DNA of 64,000 nt from Candidatus Mycalebacterium zealandia (GTDB taxonomy: Bacteria; Desulfobacterota_D; UBA1144; Nemesobacterales; Mycalebacteriaceae). Made by a program: the position numbers and the translations under genes. Position 1 is the stretch's first letter. Each line of letters begins with the position of its first letter. The notes under the pieces were generated by a model. The model was given only the letters and a program-made list of their open reading frames with translations, was not told the DNA's origin and ran no database searches. Where the stretch lies: assembly GCA_014075295.1 (NCBI GenBank), contig CP046180.1, positions 791,945 through 855,944 of the forward strand, given 5' to 3'. Shown piece after piece: positions 8,735 through 47,550 of the stretch.

Positions 8735-11506
8735 TCAACCCTGTTTGAGTTCTGATTCAAAAACCTCTTTGAGACGCGAAAATTCTTCAAGTTTTCCTTT
8801 TTCTTTTTGAATAATCTTTTCCGGAGCCTTGTTTGTGAAATCCGGGTCCGCGAGTTTGCGTTCGCATTGACGGATTTTTTCAGAGAGTTCGTCCAATTTT
8901 TTATGCGTGGTTTCAACGTTATGCGGAAATCTCGTTTGCTCTTTACACTCAGGTTCGATTTTCAGACTGATGTTGAACCGCTCGCCGGTTTGAGTTTGCA
9001 AATCGTCCAAAACCGCAAAGGAAACTGAACCCGCGAGTCCGGGCGCGGAAGAAAACTCATCTTTGTTCGCGCAAAAACTGTGAGAGGAAATTCCCGCAAG
9101 TTTGTTTAAAACTCCCGCTTCGGACTCAATTAACCGCTTTACGCATTCTTCATCTTTGCCGGGTTCTGAAAAGAAGACAACATTAATTTTTTCAGACACT
9201 TTAATGCCTCCTTCCCCTCTTTTTGTGCGGATTTCATCAATCAATCCTTCAAACAAAAAACTTATATCGTTGAAATCCGAGTTGAACTCTTTTTCAATTT
9301 TTTTGTCATGCGCCGGATAGTCCAAATCAAGCAAACCTAAAGTTTGAACTCCAAGCAACGCCTCAACCCTGTTGTTGATCTCTTCGGTAAGGTGGGGACA
9401 GAAAGGGTGCAGTGCGCGCATTGAGGCGGAGAGAATATACAAAAGAACGGCCGTTGTTCTGAGTACGGTTTGCTCATCGGAACTGCGCATTGAAATTTTC
9501 GCGGCTTCAATGTAGCGGTCGCAGAAATTTCTCCAGAAAAAGCGGTAAATCTCCTGGGCGGCTTTTCCGAACTCGTATTCATCCATAAAACCGTCAATTT
9601 TTTTCAAACAACCGTGCAAACTTGCGATTATCCATTTGTCGGTTTTACTCAAACGCGCCTTCCCTTTGGAAGTTTCAATCCGCTTCAAAGCGTCGGGAAT
9701 TTCAGCGTGCCACCGGACAGTTGATTCATCTTCAAGAACAAATCGGGACGCGTTCCATATCTTGTTCATAAAGTTTCTGTAGCCCCGTATGCTTGAAATG
9801 GAAAGGTCTATATCTTTTCCGCCCGAAGAAAGCGCGCAGAGGCAGAAGCGCAGAGTGTCGGCTCCAAACTCATCGGCAACTTCAAGCGGATCAATCACGT
9901 TCCCCTTGGTTTTACTCATCTTTTCACCATTCTCGTCCCTTATCAAGCCGTGAATGCAGATGTCCGCAAAAGGTGGTTTGCCGGTAAATTGAAGCCCCAT
10001 CATCGCCATACGAGCCACCCAGAAAAATATGATGTCAAAACCCGTTATAAGAACCGCTGTGGGATAGTATTTTCGGAAGAGAGAATCATCTTTTGTGCCC
10101 CAGTTCATCGTAACAAACGGCCATAAAGCCGAGGAAAACCAAGTGTCCAGAACATTCGGGTCTCTTTCGAGGAGAACATCTTTCCCGTAATGTCCGCTTG
10201 CGCTTTTGAGGGCTGTTTTTTCATCTTCTTCAACAAACACTTTGCCGTCGGGGCCGTACCAGACGGGTATTTGATGTCCCCACCACAACTGCCTTGATAT
10301 ACACCATGGTTCTACATTGTTCATCCATTGAAAATATGTGCGTTCCCAGAACTTTGGATAGAAAACCATGTCGTCCTTTTCAACCGATTCGACAGCTTTG
10401 ACCGCAAGTTGTTTTACATCCATATACCACTGTTCCATAATACGCGGCTCAACAACTGCGCCGGATCTGTCGCCATAGGGAACCGTATGGGAAACGGATT
10501 CGATTTTTTCAAGGAAACCATCCGCTTCAAGATCAGCAATGAGTTTTTTACGTGCCTCAAATCTTTCGAGCCCCTGATATTTTTTGGGTGCGTTTTCATT
10601 TAGGCACATATCTTCGTCAAGAATATTTACAAGTGGCAAATCGTGCCGCTTGCTGACTTCAAAGTCGTTAAAATCATGAGCGGGAGTTATCTTGACCGCG
10701 CCGCTTCCTTTTTCCGGATCTGAATACTCATCGGCAATTACGGGAATAGACTTCCCCGTGAGAGGCAACCCCACTTCCGAGCCGATGAGGGTTTTATACC
10801 TTTCATCTTCCGGATGGACCGCCACTGCGGTGTCTCCAAACATAGTTTCGGGTCTCGTGGTCGCGACAACTATGTGCCCGTTGCCGTTTTTAAGAGGGTA
10901 TTTGATGTGCCAATAGTTGCCGGGAACCTCTTTCTGCTCCACTTCCAAATCGGAAATAGCGGTTTTCAATCCGGGATCGTAATTGACCAGACGGTTATCG
11001 CGCCGGATCAGGCCTTTTTTGTAAAGCTCAACAAACACGTGTTTAACGGCGTCTGAAAATCCGTCATCCATCGTAAAACGTTGCGCGCTCCAATCGGGAA
11101 TAAATCCCAGTCTGCCTATTTGTTCAGCAATTCTGTCGCCGGATTTTTCCTTAAATTCCCAAATCTTTTCAACAAAACGCTCTTTGCCCAGTTTTTCTTT
11201 TGTAAGCCCCTCTTTTGCAAGTTCGCGCTCAACAATCATTTGGGTCGCGATTCCGGCATGATCCGTTCCCGGAACCCAGAGCACGTCAAACCCCTTCATT
11301 TTTTTATATCGGACAAGAACGTCCTGAAAAGTGTTGTTTAGAGCGTGCCCGATGTGCAGGGAGCCCGTAACATTTGGAGGCGGCATTACTATGGAAAAAC
11401 TTTTCTTCCCCCCTTTTTTCCTGCGTTCCGCCTTGAATTTTTCGTTTTTAAGCCAGAATGCCCGCCATTTTTTTTCAAGGGGAACCGGAGTATAAGTTTT
11501 TTCCAT
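8735..11506 (-). CDS. valS: Valine--tRNA ligase
   Basis: PPPNVTGSLHIGH, WCISRQLWWGH, KMSKTKGN; start taken at ATG 11506. Confidence 0.98.
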   Translation of the reverse strand: MEKTYTPVPLEKKWRAFWLKNEKFKAERRKKGGKKSFSIVMPPPNVTGSLHIGHALNNTFQDVLVRYKKMKGFDVLWVPGTDHAGIATQMIVERELAKEGLTKEKLGKERFVEKIWEFKEKSGDRIAEQIGRLGFIPDWSAQRFTMDDGFSDAVKHVFVELYKKGLIRRDNRLVNYDPGLKTAISDLEVEQKEVPGNYWHIKYPLKNGNGHIVVATTRPETMFGDTAVAVHPEDERYKTLIGSEVGLPLTGKSIPVIADEYSDPEKGSGAVKITPAHDFNDFEVSKRHDLPLVNILDEDMCLNENAPKKYQGLERFEARKKLIADLEADGFLEKIESVSHTVPYGDRSGAVVEPRIMEQWYMDVKQLAVKAVESVEKDDMVFYPKFWERTYFQWMNNVEPWCISRQLWWGHQIPVWYGPDGKVFVEEDEKTALKSASGHYGKDVLLERDPNVLDTWFSSALWPFVTMNWGTKDDSLFRKYYPTAVLITGFDIIFFWVARMAMMGLQFTGKPPFADICIHGLIRDENGEKMSKTKGNVIDPLEVADEFGADTLRFCLCALSSGGKDIDLSISSIRGYRNFMNKIWNASRFVLEDESTVRWHAEIPDALKRIETSKGKARLSKTDKWIIASLHGCLKKIDGFMDEYEFGKAAQEIYRFFWRNFCDRYIEAAKISMRSSDEQTVLRTTAVLLYILSASMRALHPFCPHLTEEINNRVEALLGVQTLGLLDLDYPAHDKKIEKEFNSDFNDISFLFEGLIDEIRTKRGEGGIKVSEKINVVFFSEPGKDEECVKRLIESEAGVLNKLAGISSHSFCANKDEFSSAPGLAGSVSFAVLDDLQTQTGERFNISLKIEPECKEQTRFPHNVETTHKKLDELSEKIRQCERKLADPDFTNKAPEKIIQKEKGKLEEFSRLKEVFESELKQG

Positions 11507-11529: not shown

Positions 11530-14500
11530 CTATACTCCCGATTTTTCTTCAAGTTTTTCAGATTTGGCTTCTTCCACAAGAGGCATAGGAACGGTTTGGT
11601 TTTCAGTCTGAATTTTGATGTTTTTATACACATCAAGACCCGTGCCGGCAGGAATGATTTTTCCGATAATAACATTCTCTTTCAGCCCTTTGAGTTTGTC
11701 CTCTTTGCTCTCGCAGGCGGCTTCGGTGAGAATTTTTGTCGTTTCCTGGAAAGACGCCGCAGACAGCCAACTTTCAGTGATGAGAGAAGAGCGCGTTATT
11801 CCGAGCAACAAAGGTTCGGCGGCGGCGGATTTGCCTTCCTGTTGTTCCACTTCAGAGTTCTCTCTATGGAACATGGCTTTCGTTACGGACTCGCCTGGAA
11901 TCATTGTTGTATCTCCGGGGTCTTTAATCTTCACTCTTTTGAGCATTTGTCTGACAATCACCTCAATGTGCTTGTCATTGACCCTGACTCCCTGTAACTC
12001 GTAAACATCCTGAATCTCCTTAACAAGGAATTCGCTGAGCGTCTTTTCCCCTTTAATTTTCAGAATGTCATGCGGGTTCTCGTCTCCGTCCACGATTTTG
12101 TCGCCCGCGACTACAAAATCGCCTTCACTGACAATGATGTGTTTTCCTTTCGGAACAATATATTCCTTCTCCTCTCCGATTTGCGGATTAACCAGAATGC
12201 GCCTTTTGCCCTTCACGTCTTCCCCGAAAGATACGGTGCCGTCAATCTCGCTTACTATCGCGAGGTTTTTATCTTTGGGAACGCGCGCTTCAAATAGTTC
12301 GGCAACTCTGGGCAGTCCGCCGGTTATGTCTTTTGTTATCCTCTTTTTCGGGATTTTTGCAACAATGTCTCCGGGCTCTACTTGGTCGCCACTATTTTTC
12401 TCAATGATCGCGCCCACGGGAAGACCGAATTCCTGTTTGGAATCTTTACCACTCTTGATAATGATAGTCGGGTTCAGCTTCGCAAGTTCCTTGATGCCCG
12501 TCGGAGGAGCGACAACCTCAATTTTGAGAATTCCGGTAATCTCATCCGGTTGCTGGCGGAAGTTTTTGCCCTCTTCCAGATCCTTCCACTGAACTGTTCC
12601 CGTACTCTCGGCGATATACTGGTTTGTATAAGGATCCCACTCTGCAAGGATTTCATTTTCAACCTTTCCATCCTTTTTGTTCTGCTCCCACTTGACCTTC
12701 TGTCCGTCCTTTGCCTTCAGGATGGAGCCCTGCTCAAGTTTGTGTGTTTCCTTCTCGTAGCCCTTTTCATCCACAATGGAAAGACGGCCGTTTCTGTTAA
12801 TAACGCGCCACAGAACACCCTTCTGTAGTTCAACGGTTTCCACATTGGACAGCAACACGGTTCCGGGGTGGTTGTTTTCAAGAGTGGCGACTTCGGCTTT
12901 TGCCTCTCCGCCCACATGAAAAGTTCTCATCGTAAGCTGAGTTCCCGGCTCGCCGATTGACTGAGCCGCCATAATTCCAACCGCCTCGCCTATATCCACG
13001 ATTTTTCCTGTTGAGAGGTTTCTCCCGTAGCAAAGACGGCATATTCCCTCTTCGGTGTCGCAGGTCAGAACCGAGCGGATTTTAACTTCATTGATACTGC
13101 TCAGGTTAATTTTTTCAGCAGCTTCGTTGTCGATTTCATGTCCGTTTTTGACAATGATTTCACCTGTTTCCGGATCCTTCAAGTCGTCCAGAACAACCCT
13201 TCCGAGCACTCTGTCTCCAACCCGTTTTTTAATTTTCCCGCCATCCACTTCATTTGTGTAAACAAGTCCCTCAATGGTTCCGCATTCTTCCTCGCGCACA
13301 ATTATGTCATGCGCAACATCAATGAGCTTTCTCGTGAGATAGCCCGCATTTGCTGTTTTAAGAGCGGTGTCGGCAAGACCTTTACGTGCGCCGTAGGTTG
13401 AAAGAAAGTAGTCCATCACCTTCAACCCTTCACGGAAGTTTGAGGTTATAGGCTTTTCAATAATGGTGTCATCTCCCTTCGCCATCAATCCCCTCATTCC
13501 GGCAAGCTGTCTCATCTGAGACATGCTACCTCGTGCTCCGGAATCAATCATCATGTATATCGGGTTTGAGCTTGTGCTTGTTCTTTCGACGCCTTTGTTG
13601 TCTTTAACGGTCTCAAACTTGATGTTTTCCATAACATTTTCGGCAATTTCATCACTCGCTCTTGTCCAGATGTCCACAACCTTGTTGTAACGCTCTCCGT
13701 CCGTCAGCAACCCTTGAGAATACTGCCCTTGAACTTTGAGTTCCTCTTCGCGCGCCTTTTCAACAATCTTTTCCTTGCTCTCGGGAATTTCCATGTCGTT
13801 AATAGAAATTGAGATGCCGGATTTTGTAGCGTATTTAAATCCAAGAGTCTTTATGCGGTCCGCCATAATAACGGTTTCTTTTCCGCCGTTTTTTCTAAAA
13901 CACATATCCACAAGGTTTTCAACTTCGCCCTTGCTCATAGGTTTGTTGACCAGTTTAAACGGAATGGTTTTCGGAATTGCCTCATCGTATAGAATCGCTC
14001 TGCCAACTGTTGTTTCAACAAGCTCGTCGTTGATTTTGATTTTTATCAGAGTGTGAATCCCGACATGCCCCGAATCGTATGCCATCATGACCTCTTCGGG
14101 CGATGAGAAGTATTTGCCTTCCCCTTTGCTGTAAGCGGAATCCTTGGTCATGTAGTAGATTCCGAGAACAATGTCCTGCGTGGGCAGAATTACGGGCTTG
14201 CCGTGCGCAGGGGAAAGTATGTTGTTTGTGGACATTATAAGCGTGCGGCATTCGGCTTGCGCCTCTATGGACAGAGGCAGGTGGACGGCCATTTGGTCGC
14301 CGTCAAAGTCCGCGTTATAAGCGGGACAGACAAGCGGATGAACCCTGATAGACCTGTCTTCCACAAGCACCGGCTCAAACGCTTGAATACTTAATTTGTG
14401 AAGGGTCGGAGCGCGGTTAAGCATAACCATGTGCTCTTTAATCACGTCATCAAGGGCATCCCATACCACCGGAACACCGGTTTCAACAAATTTCTTTGCT

Positions 14501-16458
14501 ATTTTGATTGTTGGCGCAATGGGGCTGCCGTCTTTGTTTTTGAGTTCCTGCAGTTTCTGATAAATGAACGGCTTGAAAAGCTCAAGCGCCATCTGTTTGG
14601 GAAGTCCGCACTGGTGAAGTTTGAGGTTCGGTCCCACCGTAATAACGGAACGCCCTGAATAATCCACCCTTTTTCCGAGAAGGTTCTGGCGGAATCTGCC
14701 GCTTTTGCCTTTTATGATGTCGGTCAAACTTTTCAACGGACGATGGTTGTGGCCTAGAACAGGTCTTCCCCTTCTGCCGTTTTCAAACAGTGCATCCACC
14801 GCTTCCTGCAACATTCTTTTCTCATTTCTGATGATGATGTCGGGAGCGTCCAGCTCAAGCAACCGTTTCAGGCGGTTATTTCTGTTGATGACCCGTCTGT
14901 AGAGAACATTGAGGTCTGAAGTGGCGAAACGCCCTCCGTGTGGAACAAGCGGACGCAAATCCGGCGGTAGAACGGGAATTGTTTTAAGAACCATCCACTC
15001 AGGGCGGTTTTTTGACTTGCGGAAAGTTTCGCAAATTTTGCGCCTTTTCGCGATCTTTGCCTTTTTGAGCGAAGAACTTGATTCCTGCATCTCCGTTTTC
15101 AACTCCTCGGAAAGTGATTTCAAATCAATGCTTTTGAGCATATCGTAAATGGCTTCGGCGCCCATTCCGTATGTGTAGTCAACCTCAAAACTTTCATCCG
15201 CTTCGGTAAGAGTTTTAATTTCCTTTTCGGTAAAGGTCACTTTTCTTATAATTTTGGCGAAGGCGGTCTGAGATTTTTTCAACCCTTCTCTCGCTTTTAC
15301 GAGTTTTTCATGCGCGTCTTTGAGATGCGGAGGAACTTCCTCTGCATCGGCTTCCACTTTCTTTATGTTTTTCCCGGCTTCCTTATAAAGTTTGCGTAGC
15401 GCGGCGTGCTCTTTTCCGGCATCACCTTTCGTAAGGTTGTCGCAGGAAGCGCCGAGGGCTTCTTTGTCCGCTTTTCCGGTTTCAGAAAGCTGTTTGAAAG
15501 CGTCCCGAATTTTTTTATCGCTTGAGGGAAGTTCTTCAAGTCCGAGGGTTTGGTAGTGTTTCGCGAACTTTTGCTCAAATTCCTTTTTAATGGACTGAAA
15601 ACTGTCCCGCGCCTCTTTGAGTTTTCCTCCGGACTCAAGTTCGCCCGACTCGGACACTTTTGCGTCATATGCGGACTGCTCTTTCTTAAGATCCTTTTTC
15701 GCGTCCAGAAAAGAGTCTATTAAATGCCGGGCTTCCCGCTCGGAAATGCCTGTTTTTCCCGACATAACACTTTGCAGGGAAAATTTAGTGACCAGTTCCG
15801 CGGGCAGAAGGTGTTTATACCAATAGTCTTTGACCAGAGACATGTCTTCTTCGCTAATCAAAAACGCAACGGCGTGGTTTACGTCCTCTTCGGTTTCAAT
15901 ATTAAGGAAAGTGTCTTCTTCCGGACAATTCCTGAGAGAGGCAATCACATATTCCGCCCGCCGCAGTTGCGACAACTCTTCATTCGTGAGTGTCTGCCCC
16001 ATTTTGAGGGGATGAGCGCCTGGATTGATGACCACATGGGATTCATAGTAAAGAACCCTGTCAATGTCCCTGATGCTCATGTCAAGAATCATTCCTATAC
16101 GGCTCGGGGTGCTACGCAAAAACCAGATGTGAACAACGGGCGAGGCAAGGTCTATGTGAGCCATTCTTTCCCGTCTCAATTTTGAGGTCGTAACTTCAAC
16201 GCCGCATTTTTCGCAGACAATCCCTCTGTGTTTTAGCCGTTTGTATTTGCCGCAGGCACATTCGTAATCTTTTACGGGTCCGAAAATTTTGGGGCAGAAC
16301 AAACCGTTCTTTTCCGGTTTGAACGTTCTGTAATTTATGGTTTCGGGCTTCTTAACCTCCCCGTGAGACCATTCCTTGATGGCTTCAGGAGACGCTATTG
16401 ATATTTGAACCCCTGAATAGTTATCCGCTTTGGTCGATACTATGTCTTCAAATTCCAT
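11530..16458 (-). CDS. rpoC: RNA polymerase beta' subunit with large N-terminal-region insertion
   Basis: NADFDGDQM catalytic motif, Zn-finger [25 protein letters not shown]; ATG 16458 preceded by GGAGGT. Confidence 0.99.
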
Positions 16459-16471
16459 TTTTACCTCCCGG

Positions 16472-19400
16472 TTACTGTTTTGCCGCTCCAGACTGCAATT
16501 CTGCCATTTCCTCATCGCTCTCGGAAACCAAATCTATTTGAAGTCCGAGCGATTGAAGTTCTTTCCTGAGAACATTGAAAGATTCCGGAATCCCGGGATC
16601 AAGCGCCATTTTGCCTTCAACGATTGACGCGAACATCTTTGTTCTTCCAATCACATCGTCGGACTTGACCGTCAAAAACTCTTGAAGTGTGTGTGCGGCG
16701 CCGTATGCCTCAAGAGCCCAGACCTCCATCTCACCGAGCCGTTGCCCACCGAAATGCGCCTTTCCGCCGAGCGGTTGCTGCGTGACAAGTGAGTAAGGCC
16801 CTATTGAACGCGCATGAATCTTCTCCTCAACAAGGTGGTGAAGTTTGAGCATATACATAATTCCGACTGTTACTTTCTGGTCAAACGGCTCTCCCGTGCG
16901 GCCATCAAACAGGGTTGTTTTTCCATCATCTGAAAGCCCTGCGAGGCTCATAAAACTTTTTATCTCCTCTTCGGTCGCTCCGTCAAAAACCGGAGATGCG
17001 ACGGGAATACCGTCTTTGATGGCTTTGACAAAATTGTGCGTTTCGTCTTCGTTCATTTTGTCTATAAAAGAAGTGTCCTCGCCCCGGTTTCCATAAGATT
17101 CCTTGAGTTTGGCTTTAAGCGCCGCGGCTCCGTAGTGTTGCTCAATATATTCATTGAGCTGCTCTCCGATTTTCCTGCTTGCCCAGCCCAGATGCGTTTC
17201 CAGAACCTGCCCGACATTCATTCGGGACGGAACTCCCAGAGGGTTGAGCACCATATCAACCGGCGTGCCGTCCTCCATATAAGGCATATCTTCTTGAGGA
17301 AGAATCCGTGAAATCACACCCTTGTTGCCATGCCGTCCCGCCATTTTGTCTCCGACCTGAAGATTCATTTTTACAGCAACATAGACCTTGACGGTTTTGA
17401 GAACACCCGGCGCGAGGTCGTCTTTTTGTTCAAGTTTCTTTTTATTATCCTCATACTTCTCTTTGAGGTTGTCTATCTGTCTTAAAACTGCGTCTACCGC
17501 CACCTTGACTTGTTCGGAAAGAGCCTTCGGCTCAACTTTTATTTCCCTGATATCTTCAAGATCAAGAAGCGTGAGGTTGTCAGCGGTAAAAGAGTCTCCC
17601 TTGGAAATCATCTTTTCGCCTTTACTCTTAATGTCTGAAGACGCCTTCTTGCCTTTCAGCAAAGACGCCATGGTTTCAACCGCGCTCTGTTTCAAAATGC
17701 GCGATACGTATTCCATTTCGCCTTTGATTTTCTCAATGTCATCAATTTCAATATTTTTCGCCCTCGGGTCTTTTTCCGAAACCGCGCGCGAAGTCAGCAC
17801 TTTGACATCTATAACTGTGCCGGGAATGGAGGAATGACTTCTAAGGGAGGTGTCTTTGACATCTCTTGCTTTGTCTCCGAAAATGGCGCGAAGAAGTTTT
17901 TCCTCTTGCGACAGACGCATCTCGCCTTTCGGAGAGATTTTGCCCACAAGGATATCTCCCATATTGACAGTTGAGCCAACCCGGACTATGCCGCTTTCAT
18001 CAAGATTTTTGAGTGCGTCCTCTCCAATATTGGGAATGTCTTGGGTGATTTCCTCGCGCCCCAATTTGGTTTCTCTCGCCTGACATTCAAACTTTTCTAT
18101 GTGAACGGAAGTGAAAACGTTGTCTTTTACAATTCTTTCACTAATAAGTATCGCATCTTCAAAATTGTATCCGCCCCATGGCATAAACGACACCATAATG
18201 TTCTGCCCCAGCGCCAGTTCACCATTTTTGGTTGAGGGACCGTCCGCAATAACCTGCCCTTTAACCACTTTCTGACCCTTGAAAACAATAGGAGTCTGGT
18301 TCCAGCAGGTTCCCTGATTGGATTTCCTGAACTTGATCATTTTGTATATTTCCACGCCGGAATCCAAAGAGTCGGCGGATTTTGCCATCTTGCTGTTTTT
18401 CACAACAATAATCTCGGAATCCGCGTGAATAACTTCACCATCCTCTTTTGCAATAACCGCAACTCCGGAGTCTTTTGCAACTGAAGACTCAAGCCCCGTT
18501 CCCACAAGCGGCGCGACCGCCTTAATTAAAGGAGCCGCCTGCCTCTGCATGTTTGAACCCATAAGAGCCCTGTTCGCGTCATCGTGTTCAAGAAACGGTA
18601 TCAAAGAAGCGGAGATTGAGACAAGCTGGGACGGCGAAACGTCCATATGGGTAACCTTGTCTTTTTCTGCCATTTTAATGTCGCCCTCGGAGCGGCAGGA
18701 AACAAAATCTAGAACAAACCTTCCCTTGTTGTCCAGAGGAGCGTTTGCCTGCGCTATGATGATATTTTTCTCCTCTTCCTCAAGAGCGCTCATCTTTACG
18801 ATGTCATCTGTTACTTTCCCATTTTTAACAACGCGGTAGGGAGTGCGAATAAATCCGTAATCGTCAATTTCAGCGTAAGTGCTGATGCTTGATATAAGAC
18901 CGATGTTTGGTCCCTCGGGCGTTTCAACCGGACAAATCCGCCCGTAATGCGATGAGTGAATGTCCCTGACGGCAAATCCCGCTCTTTCGCGCGTAAGCCC
19001 CTTTGGACCCAGCGCACTGAGACGCCTTTTATGAGTGATTTCCGAAAGCGGGTTGGTCTGATCCATAAACTGCGACAATTGACCCGTTTTGAAAAAGTCC
19101 CTGACTATTGTGTCTACAACCTTCGGCACCACTATCTCTCTGGGCATTTTGTTTTCTATGCTCTGGTATCCAATCCTTTCTTTCACGGAGCGCGAGAACT
19201 TTTCAAGCCCGCTGTAGAAAGTGTCTTCTATCAATTCGCCCACGGTTTTAACCCCGCGGTTGCCGAGATGATCTATGTCATCCACCTGCCTGCGACCGCC
19301 TTTGAGTTCCAAAAGATATTGCAGGGTTTGGATGATGTCTTCGCGCGTAAGCCTGAGAATTTCCTCGTCAACGTTGTGTTTGAGTTTGTAGTTCAGTTTT

Positions 19401-20902
19401 TTCCTTCCAACCTGCGAAAGCCGGTATTTGGAGGGGTTGAAAAACATGTCGGAAAAGAAAACTCTTACCGCCTCCGCGCTTGGCGGATTGGTGGGGCGGA
19501 ATTTTTTGTATATCTCAACAATCGCCCCGTCGCAGAAAACCTCAATCTCGGCGCCAATTTTGGTGAACTTGTTCCGAAGCCCTTCGATTTCGTTCATGGG
19601 AAGATTTTCAAAACACACCGTATTTTCATCTTTGGTTTCACCAAGAAAACCGGACAAATTGCCGGTCAGTTTTGAAAACTCTTCCTTTCCGGCTTTGCCC
19701 TGTTTAACTTTAAGGGCAAAAGTGTTATTGATTAAGTCTCCGTAAACCCTTTTTTCTTCAATCAAAGTGTCGGCAACCGAAAAAGGAACGGAAATATCGT
19801 CCATGTAGTAGAGTGAGATTTTTTCAATTGAATTATCTCTGGCGGCTTGCAGAGTTTCTTCGGTGATTTTTTCTCCAAATCTTGCGATGACTTCACCGTC
19901 TTTTGTGAATATGTCTTCGGCGCATATCTTGTCAAACAGTTCCGATTCACTCTCCAGAGAAACGGCGTCTATTTTCAAACTTTTCAATCTTTCAATATTT
20001 CTTTGAGTGAACTTCTTGCCTTTTTTGATAATAACTTCGTCGCCTTTCTTGATGTCCTCGGAACTTTTCTGATAAATGATTGTTTCCGGATTTATTTCTT
20101 TTGAAAGGCCGCCGTCTTTTCCAAACCGGACAGTTTCCATGCCGTAAAAATGGTTAAGAATCTCTTTCTCCGTATATCCCAGTGCTTTAAGAAAAAGCGT
20201 AACAAGAAACCTTTTTCTGCGGTCAATACGGACGTTAAGAAAGTTTTTTGAGTCAAAATCAAAATCAAGCCATCTGCCGTCCTGAGGAATGATTTTCGCG
20301 ACAAATGACTCAGCTGAAAGCTGGTGCTGATCTCCGAGTTTCGGACCGTCAAAAAGCACGCCGGGGGAACGGTGTATCTGATTAACAATCACCCTTTCCG
20401 CGCCGCCTATAATGAAAGAGCCGCTCTCGGTCATTTTGGGGATTTCGCCCAGATAGACATCCTGTTCGGCAACATCCCGGATTTCGTTTCCGTCTTCCTC
20501 CCACACTATTAAGCGCAGAGTTACATAAAGCGACACCGTGTAGTCATAGTTCTTTAGCCGGCACTCCATCTCGTCAAATTTCGGCTGCCCATCATAAATC
20601 TCATGACCGTTTTTATCTTTGATGGGGTTTCCGTCTTCATCATCAACCCTTTGCCCGAGGCTGTAGTGCACAAAATCAAGAGAAGTTCTCTCCGAGTAGT
20701 TTTCTATCGGAAAAATGGCTTTAAAAACAGCATGGAGACCGTGGTCTTTTCTTTCCACCCGGTTTTCCAGATTTATATCTTCCTGTAAAAACCGCTTGTA
20801 TGACTCGGTCTGAACATTCAAAAGATTAGGAATGTCCTGAATAGGGGGTATTTTAGAAAATGTCTTTCTCAGTTTTGTTTTATCAACCGATTGTGAATTC
20901 AA
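16472..20902 (-). CDS. rpoB: RNA polymerase beta subunit
   Basis: [47 protein letters not shown]; start estimated at TTG 20902 downstream of GGAGG. Confidence 0.99.
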
Positions 20903-20996
20903 TATATCAAAGCCCTCCAAAATCCACACCCGCCCATGGCGTCGTGCGTGCACAAATTAACTAGACTCTCAGTCAAAAAGACTTTCAAGGTAACCG

Positions 20997-24126: not shown

Positions 24127-24199
<73 letters not shown>

Positions 24200-24212
24200 T
24201 CCAACCCCTCAG

Positions 24213-25388
24213 CTACTCAATAATTCCAGTAACGACGCCGGCGCCGACAGTTTTGCCTCCCTCCCTTATGGCGAAACGCAACTGCTCCTCCATCGCCACA
24301 GGCGCTATTAACTCAACTTCCACATTTACACTGTCACCCGGCATCACCATCTCAACACCATCGGGCAACTTCACCGAACCCGTTACATCCGTCGTCCGTA
24401 AATAAAACTGAGGCCTGTAACCCGGAAAAAACGGAGTGTGCCTTCCACCCTCCTCCTTCTTCAACACGTACACCTCGGCGGAAAACTTCTTGTGAGGCAT
24501 AATGCTGCCCACTGCCGACAACACCTGCCCTCTCTCAACAGTCTCCTTGTCCACGCCGCGCAACAACACCCCAACGTTGTCACCCGCAACCGCATCGTCC
24601 AGTATCTTGCGGAACATCTCAAGACTCGTCGCAACCGTCTTAACCGTCTCCTTGAATCCCACAATCTCCACCTCGTCACCCGCGTTTATCTTGCCCCTCT
24701 CCACTCTGCCCGTAACAACCGTGCCTCTGCCCGATATAGTGAAAACATCCTCAACAGCCATAATGAACGGCTTGTCAACCTCTCTCACGGGCTCAGGTAC
24801 ATAACTGTCCACCGCACTCATCAACTCTTTAATCTGAGCCGCAGAGTCTCCGTCCCCCTCAAGGGCCTTGAGCGCGCTTACCTTCACTATCGGTATGTCG
24901 TCCCCGGGAAACTTGTACTCATTCAGCAAATCCCGTATCTCAAGCTCAACCAAATCCAAAAGCTCAGGGTCGTCCAGCATGTCAACCTTGTTCAACGCAA
25001 CCACTATCGACGGAACCCCCACCTGACGCGCCAACAGGATGTGCTCCCGCGTCTGAGGCATAGGACCATCCGGCGCGCTTACAACCAGTATCGCACCGTC
25101 CATCTGCGCAGCCCCCGTTATCATGTTCTTCACATAGTCCGCGTGACCGGGACAGTCAACATGCGCGTAGTGCCGTGACTCCGTCTCGTACTCAACATGC
25201 GATATGTTTATCGTTATCCCCCTGTCCTTCTCCTCAGGAGACTTGTCTATGTCCCCAAACTCCACAAACTCCGCCTTGTCCAATACCTTCGTTATCGCAG
25301 CCGTAAGGGTCGTCTTGCCATGATCAACATGACCTATCGTCCCTATATTTAAATGTGGCTTGCCCCTCTCAAACTTCTCTTTAGACAT
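24213..25388 (-). CDS. tuf: Elongation factor Tu
   Basis: [30 protein letters not shown]; 391 aa. Confidence 0.99.
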
Positions 25389-25439
25389 CTCTTCTTACCT
25401 CCTCAAAATGCCTGCAAATCATAAAAGCCCAATTCCTAC

Positions 25440-25512
<73 letters not shown>

Positions 25513-25525
25513 GGGGCAGTTTCTC

Positions 25526-25599
25526 AGCGGGAGACGGGATTCGAACCCGCGACCCTCAGCTTGGAAGGCTGATGCTCTAGCCAACTGAGCTACTCCCGC
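25526..25599 (-). tRNA. tRNA-Gly(TCC)
   Basis: GCGGGAG acceptor stem, anticodon loop CTTCCAA. Confidence 0.97.
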
Positions 25600-25615
25600 A
25601 GATTGCCAAGACGCA

Positions 25616-25698
25616 TGGGGAGGGTAGGATTCGAACCCACGTAGGCTTACGCCGGCAGATTTACAGTCTGCTGCTTTTGGCCACTCAGCCACCTCCCC
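25616..25698 (-). tRNA. tRNA-Tyr(GTA)
   Basis: GGGGAGG/CCTCCCC acceptor stem, anticodon loop CTGTAAA, long variable arm. Confidence 0.97.
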
Positions 25699-25748
25699 TT
25701 TTTTCAAAACAACAGACATAGCAAAACTCCAACCGTAGGCTCTTTGAC

Positions 25749-25821
25749 AGCTGGCGAAGGGATTCGAACCCCCGACCTGCTGATTACAAATCAGCTGCTC
25801 TGCCAACTGAGCTACGCCAGC
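25749..25821 (-). tRNA. tRNA-Thr(TGT)
   Basis: GCTGGCG acceptor stem, anticodon loop TTTGTAA; completes the thrU-tyrU-glyT-thrT-tuf arrangement. Confidence 0.97.
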
Positions 25822-45281: not shown

Positions 45282-45925
45282 GTTTCCGCGCTGTCATCTT
45301 TGACATGGACGGGGTGCTGATAGACAGCGAACCCCTCTGGGAAGAGACGGAAATCAAACTTCTAAAATCAATGGGCGCGGAATACGACCCCGCTTTCAGA
45401 GACAATGTTGTGGGTTTGAGTCAGGTTGACTCATCAAAACTGATTATCGCAGAGTTCGGTCTGGACTGTTCGCCCGAAGAGTTGATTGAAAAACGCCTGA
45501 ATCTTCTCTTGCGCGTCTATGATGAAAAACTGACGATGTTTGACGGTGCGAAACCGCTTATTAACGGTTTGAGAGAGCGGGGAATTAAAACCGCGCTCGC
45601 GTCAAGCTCGCCGACGGAGGCGATTTCCTTTGTGCTTGAAAAGTTTTCAATTCGCGATTTGTTTGACGCCGTTATATCGGGTGACTGCATAAAAAATGGC
45701 AAACCCGCGCCGGACATCTATCTGCTCGCGGCGGCGGAAATAGGCGTAAAACCGTCCGAATGCGCGGCGATTGAAGACTCGCCCAAAGGCGCGCAATCCG
45801 CCGCCGCCGCAGGAATGTTCTGCATTGCCATTCCCGATAAACGCCTCAACGCCGAAGAGTTTGAAATCTGCGATGCGATTTGTGAAAACATCTGTGAAGC
45901 CGAAGCGGTAATTCTCCGCGTTTGA
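45278..45925 (+). CDS. HAD-superfamily phosphatase (beta-PGM/CbbY-like)
   Basis: [31 protein letters not shown]; TTG start overlapping maeB stop. Confidence 0.9.
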
Positions 45926-45950
45926 CTTCAACCCCCTGCTTTAATACAAT
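45922..45950 (+). promoter_or_regulatory. Near-consensus sigma70 promoter for structured RNA and methyltransferase-HNH gene
   Basis: TTGACT (45922-45927), 17-nt spacer, TACAAT (45945-45950). Confidence 0.75.
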
Positions 45951-45955
45951 CCGCC

Positions 45956-46077
45956 TGTTCACCTTTTTTATCAGAAACCCGCAAAGTCGGGTCTCTGTGA
46001 ATACAAGACCCTCGCGGGAAATAAACAGAACTTTCAAACCTCTGGTGAAGAAGGTGAACAAGGCCCGGCACCTTGTT
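45956..46077 (+). ncRNA. Candidate structured RNA / cis-regulatory leader, family unassigned
   Basis: 20 uninterrupted pairs 45956-45975 with 46041-46060 (three G-U); inner stems CCCGC/GCGGG and GGGTCT/AGACCC; competing hairpin AACAAGG/CCTTGTT at 46057-46077. Confidence 0.65.
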
Positions 46078-46100
46078 TGCAAGTCGGGCTGTGTGTCAAA

Positions 46101-47537
46101 ATGGGCGTTGAACCTTACACACTGTTCACCGGCGATAACCTGCCGATTATGCGGGGAATGGACGATGAGTCCATTGATCTGATTTATTTAGACCCGCCAT
46201 TTAACAAGAAAAAGATTTTTGAAGCCCCTATTGGAAGCGGAGCGGAAGGTGCAAAGTTTGAAGACACTTGGAAAATGAGCGATGTCAAAAGTGAGGAAAT
46301 TGCAGAGGTGGAAACGGAAAACAAACCGCTTGCCAATTTAATCAATCTTGCCGGAAACATCGGCGGGAACAGTTATAAAGCGTATTTGATATTTATGGCT
46401 TTGCGTCTAATCCAGATGAGACGCATACTGAAAAACACGGGAAGCATCTATCTGCATTGTGACCCCACAATGAGCCATTGGTTGAAGTTGTTAATGGATG
46501 CGGTGTTTGGGGTTAAAAACTTCAGAAGTGAAATTACATGGAAGCGGGCAACTTCAACACAAAAAGGATCTCAACACAAAAACAAAAAATGGGGAGACAA
46601 TGCTGATATCGTTTTGTATTTTGCAAAATCCAATAAAACACCTTTGAACCCATTGAGACAATTAACAGAAGAAGAAATAGAAAAAAAGTTTCCGAAGACT
46701 GATGAAAATGGCAGAGCATACAACACCGCAACGCCATTATTCCGTGCCAAAAGTATGGGAGAGCGTCCTAATCTATGCTATGAGTGGCGGGGTTTTCGCA
46801 ATCCTCACCCTTCAGGGTGGCGGTTGAGCAAAGAAAGACTGGAAGAAGAATACCAAAAAGGCAACATAGTTATTTCTACTAATAAGAAAGGAATGAAGAT
46901 AGAGAGGAGAGCATATGCAGACTATTACAAAGGGGCGACATTCGGCAATATCTGGGACGACATCAAACCGGTTTCAGGTCAAGAACGCACACACTACCCC
47001 ACTCAAAAACCTCTTGCTTTGCTTGACCGCATAATCAAAGCATCCAGCAATGAGGGCGACATGGTATTTGACCCGTTTTGCGGTTGTGCTACCACGCCCA
47101 TTGCGGTAGCAGGGCTTAATCGCAAATGGATAGGAATTGACCTTTCGAAGAAGGCTGTTGAATTGGTTCAAAGCCGAATGAGAAAGGATTTATTTGTGTA
47201 TTGGGAAAAAGGCAAAACGCCAACGGGCTTTAAGCCAATAGTTATTCATCGTGATGATGTTCCCATTCGGTCTGACAGAGTTAAGCAAAGTCCCAATATA
47301 AAACATATGAAATACGGCGAGCAAGAAGGATGTTGTGCTTGCGATGGCAACCATTTTCTTATTCAGAACTTGACCATTGACCATGACATTCCAAGAAGCA
47401 AAGGCGGAACTGATGATGACTCAAATCTCGTTCTGCTTTGCGGACTGTGCAACAGCATAAAGGGCGCAGGCCGAACACTCTCCGAAGCAAAAGCACGCTA
47501 TAAACAGTTGTATCCCAACGAATACAAAGATGTGTAG
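46101..47537 (+). CDS. Beta-class amino (N4/N6) DNA methyltransferase fused to C-terminal HNH endonuclease domain
   Basis: Motif IV DLIYLDPPFN near N-terminus, HYPTQKP, motif I DPFCGCATT; C-terminal CCAC...IDHDIPRSKGGTDDDSNLVLLCGLCNSIKG; start taken at ATG 46101. Confidence 0.9.
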   Translation: MGVEPYTLFTGDNLPIMRGMDDESIDLIYLDPPFNKKKIFEAPIGSGAEGAKFEDTWKMSDVKSEEIAEVETENKPLANLINLAGNIGGNSYKAYLIFMALRLIQMRRILKNTGSIYLHCDPTMSHWLKLLMDAVFGVKNFRSEITWKRATSTQKGSQHKNKKWGDNADIVLYFAKSNKTPLNPLRQLTEEEIEKKFPKTDENGRAYNTATPLFRAKSMGERPNLCYEWRGFRNPHPSGWRLSKERLEEEYQKGNIVISTNKKGMKIERRAYADYYKGATFGNIWDDIKPVSGQERTHYPTQKPLALLDRIIKASSNEGDMVFDPFCGCATTPIAVAGLNRKWIGIDLSKKAVELVQSRMRKDLFVYWEKGKTPTGFKPIVIHRDDVPIRSDRVKQSPNIKHMKYGEQEGCCACDGNHFLIQNLTIDHDIPRSKGGTDDDSNLVLLCGLCNSIKGAGRTLSEAKARYKQLYPNEYKDV

Positions 47538-47550
47538 TTTTTACTTCACC

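Follow-up and report, generated by a model that had tools for sequence, protein, structure and literature searches.

A 64,000-nucleotide (nt) stretch of the chromosome of Candidatus Mycalebacterium zealandia (contig CP046180.1, positions 791,945 to 855,944; hereafter the window) carries a gene for a DNA methyltransferase fused to an HNH nuclease, and directly upstream of this gene lies a segment with the potential to form an extensively structured RNA. Which kind of RNA does the segment encode, and does it belong to the gene that follows? A first-pass annotation of the window had described the segment as a promoter-defined, switch-like RNA and had offered a new riboswitch or attenuator, an RNA antitoxin, or a scaffold for the methyltransferase-HNH protein as its function. 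As judged from sequence comparison, the element is very probably a divergent member of the sRNA-Xcc1 class of small RNAs (sRNAs). We favor, with moderate confidence, the view that it serves as a copy-specific antisense feedback leader, similar to the c4 RNA of phages P1 and P7, on a horizontally acquired and possibly toxic gene.

Identity of the RNA

In a permissive Rfam scan of 901 nt around the element (45600–46500), the sRNA-Xcc1 model (RF02221) matched positions 45986–46077 of the + strand over its entire length (model positions 1–87 of 87; 35.0 bits, E=3.3e-4). The gathering score of this model, 53 bits, was not reached, and no Rfam model attained its gathering threshold in the scanned region. 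The assignment was examined with a covariance model, R1, whose gap-free seed comprised 12 members from phages and plasmids, with the window excluded. True members were gathered from plasmids and from 120 viral contigs. A MAFFT alignment of 55 members (A2) had been out of register, such that RNAalifold recovered helix P3 only, and the addition of locus L128 shifted the register; the gap-free seed and a model-based realignment were used instead. R1 yielded a single match in the window, at 45987–46072 of the + strand (34.5 bits, E=3e-6, model positions 1–79 of 79), with a score that falls inside the range of bona fide phage members (25–95 bits). The window element is scored at 68.4 bits by a second model, R2, which represents the environmental and sponge-symbiont sub-class described below.

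The window is in register in the model-based alignment of 92 matches, which comprises 85 distinct members, and all 21 of its listed junction pairs are standard pairs. Across the family, 96.9% of cells at the junction positions are paired, as compared to 35–57% when partners are slid by one to three columns, and compensatory changes occur in 18 of 20 pairs, although these counts lean towards structure because the alignment was fitted to the model. The first-pass annotation had named the lack of a covarying structure upstream of homologous genes as a ground for refutation. No such structure occurs upstream of the gene in the 83 homologue loci examined, but covariation is present among homologues of the RNA. 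The core of the window RNA, GAAUACAAGACCC-UCGC-GGGAAAUAA, matches the consensus AUACAA-N-A-CCC / GGG-N-AA, and is aligned as GAAUACAA-G-A-CCC...GGG-AAAUAA; it deviates in having a P3 loop that is not GNRA and an A instead of G after the GGG. Phage, plasmid, and environmental members share an almost unchanging internal loop, GAAUACAA-N-A / R-AAUAA, which lies outside the antisense determinants and may be a contact site for a protein or RNase P or a tertiary motif.

The archetype of the class accumulates as an 88-nt RNA in Xanthomonas campestris, as seen in Northern blots (PMC2996969), and is found in integron cassettes of this organism as well as in transposons, plasmids, and prophages. The window RNA has the same junction of P1, a P2-P3 arm, and P4, and shares with sRNA-Xcc1 an AAUACAA-N-A-CCC...GGG-R-AAU core and a CACC-type tail following P1. 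Likewise, it is located just upstream of, and in the same orientation as, a gene of a mobile or accessory element. The two differ in score (35 versus the required 53 bits), in the P3 loop (UCGC rather than GNRA or UUCG), and in the P4 loop, which is 14 nt long in the window. They also differ in cargo and host, which in this case are a methyltransferase-HNH gene and an apparently environmental or sponge-associated bacterium.

A scan of metagenomes with the window-type core (GAATRCAANANCC...GGNAAATAANCAG) retrieved 22 contigs. Copies confirmed by R1 are located in L212 (two copies, whose 5' halves are nearly identical to that of the window), L225, L227, L222, and the group L216/L228/L231. Together with the window and with copies in L064 and L068, these make nine distinct members of a sub-class. 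The relatives of the window element score 32.7–40.7 bits in Rfam or go undetected, and the sub-class is therefore missed by annotation at the gathering threshold.

Two mutually exclusive folds of the leader

A sigma-70-type promoter with 10 of 12 consensus matches precedes the element. Four promoter-like sites were found in the region versus 4.1 expected from shuffles, and the promoter match is not significant by itself. However, the predicted start of transcription (~45956–45958) coincides with the first bases of a leader arm, and a -10 box is located 4–6 nt 5' of this arm in the window, in both L212 copies, and in L064, L216, and L068. This conserved spacing supports a start at the base of the long stem, as had been proposed initially.

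The long stem is formed by the leader arm (45956–75) and a downstream segment (46041–60), as listed in the table, and consists of 17 Watson-Crick pairs and three G-U pairs that are possible only on the + strand. The duplex has an energy of -28.8 kcal/mol on the + strand and -22.9 kcal/mol on the - strand. The first-pass annotation took these G-U pairs as a sign of selection at the level of RNA. This argument holds for the window but is weak in general, as the asymmetry between strands is slight across the sub-class (-29.4 versus -27.8 kcal/mol). The region 45950–46135 folds on the + strand with -71.3 kcal/mol (z = -4.8, with none of 200 shuffles as good), and with a z-score of -2.9 on the - strand. 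For the transcript 45957–46135, the fold with the long stem has an energy of -64.1 kcal/mol, as compared to -44.4 kcal/mol with the three-way junction forced, and the long stem appears first in folds of the growing chain. For the excised 87-nt RNA, the junction fold has an energy of -21.7 kcal/mol, and the minimum-free-energy fold, at -26.4 kcal/mol, retains P1, P3, and P4.

The long stem and helices P1 and P4 are mutually exclusive. In the long-stem state, the two strands of P1 are split between two alternative hairpins, the spacer hairpin on the 5' side and a second hairpin on the 3' side. Both states are conserved. In all nine sub-class members, a leader at about -35 to -10 pairs with the segment comprising the P4 loop, the P4 3' strand, and J4/1, forming a helix of 15–27 base pairs (bp) from sequences that are unrelated between members. 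Cognate leaders average -29.7 kcal/mol versus -12.9 +/- 5.5 kcal/mol for noncognate ones in an 8 x 8 test, and the L068 RNA pairs with its own leader at -27.3 kcal/mol. Pairing of a spacer CCC(G)/(C)GGG with the P1 5' strand was found in the other sub-class leaders as well, and every member has a downstream segment with which the P1 3' strand can pair, again with differing sequences. Since the long stem and P1/P4 cannot coexist and are each conserved, the description of the element as a switch-like, multistate RNA at the 5' end of the transcript was correct.

The individual motifs that this description relied on (ACCCG/CGGGT, CCCGC/GCGGG, AACAAGG/CCTTGTT at 46057–63 and 46071–77, and GGTGAACA at 46053–60) are all present where they had been placed. 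Their interpretation fared less uniformly. The inner stems CCCGC/GCGGG and GGGTCT.TGT/ACAAGACCC belong to the minimum-free-energy prediction, clash with the conserved and covarying P2 and P3, and are probably artifacts of energy minimization rather than biological pairs. A terminator-type expression platform was also not borne out: there is no terminator-like site in 45950–46100 and no run of U after the alternative hairpins, and the hairpin at 46061–89 is followed by GUGUGUCAAAAUG.

Table. Features of the RNA element and its cargo gene, in coordinates of the window.
Feature	Position	Strand	Description
Sigma-70-type promoter	45922..45950	+	TTGACT (45922-27), 17-nt spacer, TACAAT (45945-50); 10/12 matches
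5'-terminal leader arm (putative decoy, like a1b1 of phage P1)	45956..45975	+	pairs with 46041-46060
Spacer hairpin ACCCG-N6-CGGGT	45977..45992 (45977-81 / 45988-92)	+	sequesters P1 5' strand in long-stem state; first in co-transcriptional folds
Three-way-junction RNA of the sRNA-Xcc1 class, 87 nt	45986..46072	+	Rfam RF02221, R1, R2, covariation
P1	45986-93 / 46062-69	+	UCGGGUC/GGCCCGG
P2	45995-98 / 46025-28	+	CUGU/ACAG
Internal loop, invariant	45999-46008 / 46019-24	+	GAAUACAAGA / AAAUAA
P3	46009-11 / 46016-18	+	loop UCGC
P4	46030-35 / 46050-55	+	ACUUUC/GAAGGU; 14-nt loop 46036-49
Putative antisense/specificity segment (3' part of P4 loop, P4 3' strand, J4/1)	46041..46060	+	3' arm of long stem; complementary to leader arm and 46122-46132
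J4/1	46056-61	+	
Alternative hairpin	46061..46089	+	P1 3' strand GGCCCGGC with downstream repeat of P1 5' strand GUCGGGCU (46082-89); forms only without P1
ACC tail (CACC-type) after P1	46070-72	+	
Translation-initiation region	46091..46122	+	6-bp hairpin GUGUGU / ACACAC around ATG 46101; no Shine-Dalgarno, A-rich leader
Cargo gene (open reading frame)	46101..47537	+	beta-class N6/N4 DNA methyltransferase (N6_N4_Mtase) with C-terminal HNH nuclease, 478 amino acids
Putative a2-like target, codons 8-11	46122..46132	+	CTGTTCACC(GG) = CUGUUCACC(GG); starts at +22

Antisense action and its target

Members of the class in phages and plasmids provide a clue to function. Among 46 such members, next genes of antirepressor type encode the domains Bro-N (9), Rha (7), KilA-N (7), P22_AR_N (4), AntA (3), ORF6N (3), and ANT (2). 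Sufficient downstream sequence was available for 84 members. In the majority of them, the longest stretch complementary to the P4 hairpin abuts the Shine-Dalgarno sequence of the next gene, 23–45 nt after the RNA. This complement is typically 7–8 and up to 11 nt in length, with a mean longest match of 6.85 nt versus 5.33 nt in permuted pairs of RNA and gene. J4/1 is often complementary to the stretch directly 5' of that site (for example, in L109, L139, and L094). On the upstream side, 59% of members, as compared to 6% of controls, have a complement of at least 8 nt, usually ~100 nt ahead of the RNA. Two or three copies of the RNA are found within 1–2 kilobases (kb) of single phage contigs, as in L117 (7186, 8044, and 9210), L123 (4351 and 4922), L099, L104, L084, and L127. 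In most of these tandem copies, each P4 loop is matched to the ribosome-binding site of its own next gene, an arrangement reminiscent of that in Xylella, for which five tandem copies have been reported. The integrons of Xanthomonas carry sRNA-Xcc1 upstream of, and in the same orientation as, the toxin gene symE (10.1101/2025.06.18.660453, a 2025 preprint).

This arrangement is that of c4 (RF01695) in the immI operon of phages P1 and P7 (c4-icd-ant), in which promoter, upstream copies (a1b1), RNA, downstream targets, and regulated gene follow in the same order; the GenBank record of phage P1 annotates promoters, a1, b1, c4 RNA, a2, b2 ("repression of icd ant translation"), icd, and ant. In c4 as in the sRNA-Xcc1 class, unpaired segments of the RNA are the specificity determinants, and the outer stem is followed by a CCA-like tail. 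c4 is said to be processed by RNase P, a finding credited to Hartmann et al. in 1995. Homology of the two was considered and rejected, as RF01695 gave no match in the window at E up to 10 and R1 scored phage P1 c4 at only 4.9 bits; by these comparisons, the RNAs are analogous rather than homologous. The comparisons suggest that sRNA-Xcc1-type RNAs, for which the usual annotation is that of virulence sRNAs acting in trans, are antisense leader RNAs of the c4 kind, linked in cis to their targets. No paper stating such a c4-like reading was found in the limited collection of literature searched.

The window has an upstream copy of the a1b1 type, namely the 20 bp formed by 45956–75 with 46041–60. 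Unlike in sRNA-Xcc1, in which the copy is at about -100, the decoy in the window is at about -30 and part of one continuous, 5'-terminal stem. Unlike in c4, the downstream site in the window lies in codons 8–10 rather than at the ribosome-binding site, and the gene to be regulated is not an antirepressor. This site arises from a repeat: CTGTTCACC, the first 9 nt of the leader-arm region (45955–63), recurs at 46122–30, and is complementary to GGUGAACA (46053–60) or CUGGUGAA (46041–48). The first-pass annotation had noted this recurrence and the pairing it would allow. Recurrence of a 9-mer of the leader arm in the 110 nt that follow is improbable by chance, being seen in 0.3% of shuffles (P=0.003), but the energy of the resulting duplex is not significant. 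Among relatives, downstream copies of the arm cover 12 nt over the AUG in L064, two sites in L222, one of which is on the Shine-Dalgarno sequence, 7 nt at the Shine-Dalgarno sequence in L227, and 6 nt between the Shine-Dalgarno sequence and the AUG in L225.

On these grounds, we propose the following course of events. Transcription would start from the promoter at 45922–50 at the leader arm. In the primary transcript, the decoy arm would lock the antisense segment in the 20-bp stem, with P1 split into the two alternative hairpins. Release or refolding of the 87-nt junction RNA would free the variable segment 46041–60 (P4 loop, P4 3' strand, and J4/1), which would act as the specificity determinant and pair with the complementary site (CUGUUCACCGG, codons 8–11) in the 5' portion of its own or a sister message, or with the decoy of new transcripts. 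The outcome would be copy-specific negative feedback on synthesis of the potentially toxic methyltransferase-nuclease. Of the functions offered at first, an RNA antitoxin that restrains a nuclease comes nearest to this proposal, in which repression and toxicity are putative.

Several observations weigh against the proposal. The RNA scores below the Rfam gathering threshold, with its P3 loop (UCGC) and one core base off consensus. No complementarity to the start codon was found in the window; the sole candidate site begins at +22, beyond the stretch in which pairing would ordinarily prevent initiation, and its duplex energy is equalled by 18% of random windows. The predicted accessibility of the start codon hardly differs between the long-stem and junction folds. 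In addition, three sub-class members (both L212 copies and L216) have no clear downstream copy of the arm, and no close relative of the window locus was found. As neither duplex energy nor accessibility of the start codon is favorable, we infer the target-pairing step in the window rather than observe it.

A broader form of the proposal, which we regard as possible but doubtful, is that the sub-class constitutes a portable, self-contained feedback cassette of promoter, decoy arm, junction RNA, and alternative hairpin that came from phages and now drives diverse accessory genes of environmental and sponge-symbiont genomes, with the mature RNA acting in trans on nascent decoy arms and thereby flipping the folds of the leader. 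If true, the leader would represent a "countertranscript" switch on the sense strand, which has not been described as a mechanism of either c4 or sRNA-Xcc1.

The weakness of the downstream target in the window, and the lack of an evident one in the same three relatives, would also be explained by a leader acting purely in cis, in which the long stem and hairpin serve as a device for stability of the messenger RNA or processing by RNase III, or fix the level of translation, with no antisense action on the coding region. The long stem, which begins at the predicted 5' end, is thermodynamically dominant and forms first during transcription, fits such a role. Nevertheless, we consider a purely cis-acting leader unlikely, as the junction is excluded by the long stem and yet is strongly conserved with compensatory changes, phage and plasmid members have covarying complementarity to the ribosome-binding site, and the archetype accumulates as a discrete RNA of 88 nt (PMC2996969).

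The opposite possibility is that of a trans-acting sRNA with targets elsewhere in the genome, for which the position before the methyltransferase-HNH gene would be incidental and due to joint carriage on a small island. sRNA-Xcc1 is indeed described as trans-acting and as regulated by HrpG and HrpX in the title of a report on it (Chen et al. 2011), and homologues in Xylella have many predicted targets (PMC12189769). Such a trans-acting sRNA is nonetheless quite unlikely, given that the next gene invariably follows in the same orientation, 25–60 nt after the RNA, and that the variable segment of each copy fits the leader of that copy and, for most members, the ribosome-binding site downstream of it as well. 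Even between the two L212 copies, the variable segments differ.

The methyltransferase-HNH gene and its surroundings

The N-terminus of the methyltransferase-HNH protein is consistent with those of homologous proteins. Its gene has a G+C fraction of 0.41–0.44 as compared to ~0.50 in the flanks, which consist of housekeeping genes (malic enzyme and a HAD hydrolase on the 5' side, and histidine phosphatase and trehalose-phosphate synthase on the 3' side). With this lower G+C amid housekeeping flanks, the RNA and the gene look like a compact acquired module of ~1.6 kb. Flanking direct repeats or an attC-like site were sought around 45926–47550 but not found. The remainder of the window has the content of a core chromosome, with a tRNA gene truncated at the window start (1–62), a cluster of five tRNA genes beside an open reading frame of 391 amino acids (24127–25821), and two very large open reading frames of 1661 and 1493 amino acids (11530–20953). 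Judged solely by their size and arrangement, these reading frames may represent tuf and rpoB/rpoC. This content fits an insertion of the RNA-methyltransferase module among housekeeping genes. The lack of a Shine-Dalgarno sequence in the methyltransferase-HNH gene is normal for this genome, because only 8 of the 22 long open reading frames of the window that start with ATG have a recognizable one. Many have A-rich leaders instead (for example, tcaaaATG), and translation in this genome seems often to begin without a Shine-Dalgarno sequence.

The methyltransferase-HNH family is very widespread, with at least 589 confirmed loci in species-representative genomes. We examined 83 homologue loci, comprising the best 80 (L001–L080) of the at least 589 and the three closest homologues (L081–L083). 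The best 80, with identities of 39–57%, derive almost all from sponge-associated metagenome-assembled genomes, which span many bacterial phyla and include Nitrosopumilus archaea. This distribution suggests that this solitary methyltransferase-nuclease gene has spread extensively by horizontal transfer in sponge microbiomes. None of the 83 loci has the RNA upstream of the gene, as searched with R1 and R2. The closest homologues (58–66% identity) have intergenic regions of 118, 38, and 490 nt with no RNA match. An nhmmer search with the single window sequence against the 80 loci gave nothing, and a blastn comparison of the region with phages returned no more than a 29-nt match attributable to chance. 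Two of the homologue loci, L064 and L068, do hold sub-class copies, but these are located elsewhere and precede other genes. The RNA is thus not tied to the methyltransferase-HNH protein family.

The cargo of the sub-class is varied. It includes an HExxH lipoprotein and an ankyrin-repeat protein (L212), an HExxH protein with a signal peptide (L064), a LuxR-type regulator (L216), a hydrophobic open reading frame of 28 amino acids (L068), and unknowns, in addition to the methyltransferase-HNH gene of the window. In L068, a sponge-derived genome of Latescibacterota (8843–8965, - strand), the layout of promoter, decoy arm, and hairpin is kept and is followed by a strong Shine-Dalgarno sequence and the 28-codon reading frame, whose product looks like a type I toxin. 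In L216, the RNA (12338–12440, - strand) lies ~250 nt from a tRNA gene (12685–12771, - strand), a typical site of island integration. The two cargo genes of L212 share identical first five codons, ATGAGGACGATTCTG (548–562 and 2335–2349), which are nearly complementary to CAGAACGUCC in RNA copy 1 and partly to the corresponding CGGAACGUCC in copy 2. These codons may belong to the mobile module or offer another site for targeting.

That the pairing of RNA and gene in the window is unique among the 83 loci, and that the window has no canonical target at the ribosome-binding site, might indicate a functionless relic of an immI-like phage immunity region beside which the methyltransferase-HNH gene landed. 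Such a relic appears improbable in view of the intact state of the element, which has kept its four helices and invariant core as well as the alternative hairpin, the 20-bp decoy stem, and a good promoter. Furthermore, no other phage genes are found near the element, and the compact layout of promoter, leader, RNA, and gene recurs with other, non-phage cargo.

A metabolite riboswitch that senses, for example, S-adenosylmethionine (SAM) or S-adenosylhomocysteine and controls the methyltransferase would account for a highly conserved internal loop between covarying helices and for two alternative folds, but it is very improbable: no riboswitch family of Rfam matched with E up to 10, it is the antisense determinants and not a binding pocket that vary and covary, methyltransferase-HNH homologues occur without the RNA, and the proposed novelty is met by a known class that precedes genes without a shared metabolism (for antirepressors, SymE, ankyrin-repeat proteins, LuxR-type regulators, and HExxH lipoproteins). 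Equally hard to credit is a role as guide or scaffold of the HNH nuclease, comparable to that of the omega RNA (HEARO) of IscB, since the weak domain-level similarity of the adjoining HNH domain to those of IscB and Cas9 (30 bits versus a cut-off of 175) is set against an RNA class associated with unrelated proteins and missing from upstream of every homologue examined.

A c4-like leader on a gene of this kind has parallels in other systems. Type I toxin-antitoxin pairs such as SymR/SymE likewise have a small RNA adjoining, and specific for, a gene whose product can damage DNA. Unlike SymR, the window RNA is on the same strand and in the leader rather than cis-antisense, and the toxicity of the methyltransferase-HNH protein, which carries its own methyltransferase, is putative. 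The controller (C) proteins of restriction-modification systems offer another possible analogy, as they control the dosage or timing of a nuclease, here on a mobile gene that resembles restriction-modification. Control in the window would be through RNA instead of a DNA-binding protein, and as methyltransferase and nuclease are one polypeptide, no differential timing of the two is possible.

The element of the window is therefore a divergent member of a described RNA class, and the ideas of a guide RNA and of a SAM sensor can be set aside. Already known are the sRNA-Xcc1 class itself and, as its functional counterpart, c4 with a1b1. New in the window element are its sub-threshold score, the decoy fused into a 5'-terminal 20-bp stem, the conserved alternative hairpin, and a cargo without precedent. 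With its two conserved and mutually exclusive folds, the element represents a compact natural system for RNA-controlled expression of acquired, possibly harmful genes.

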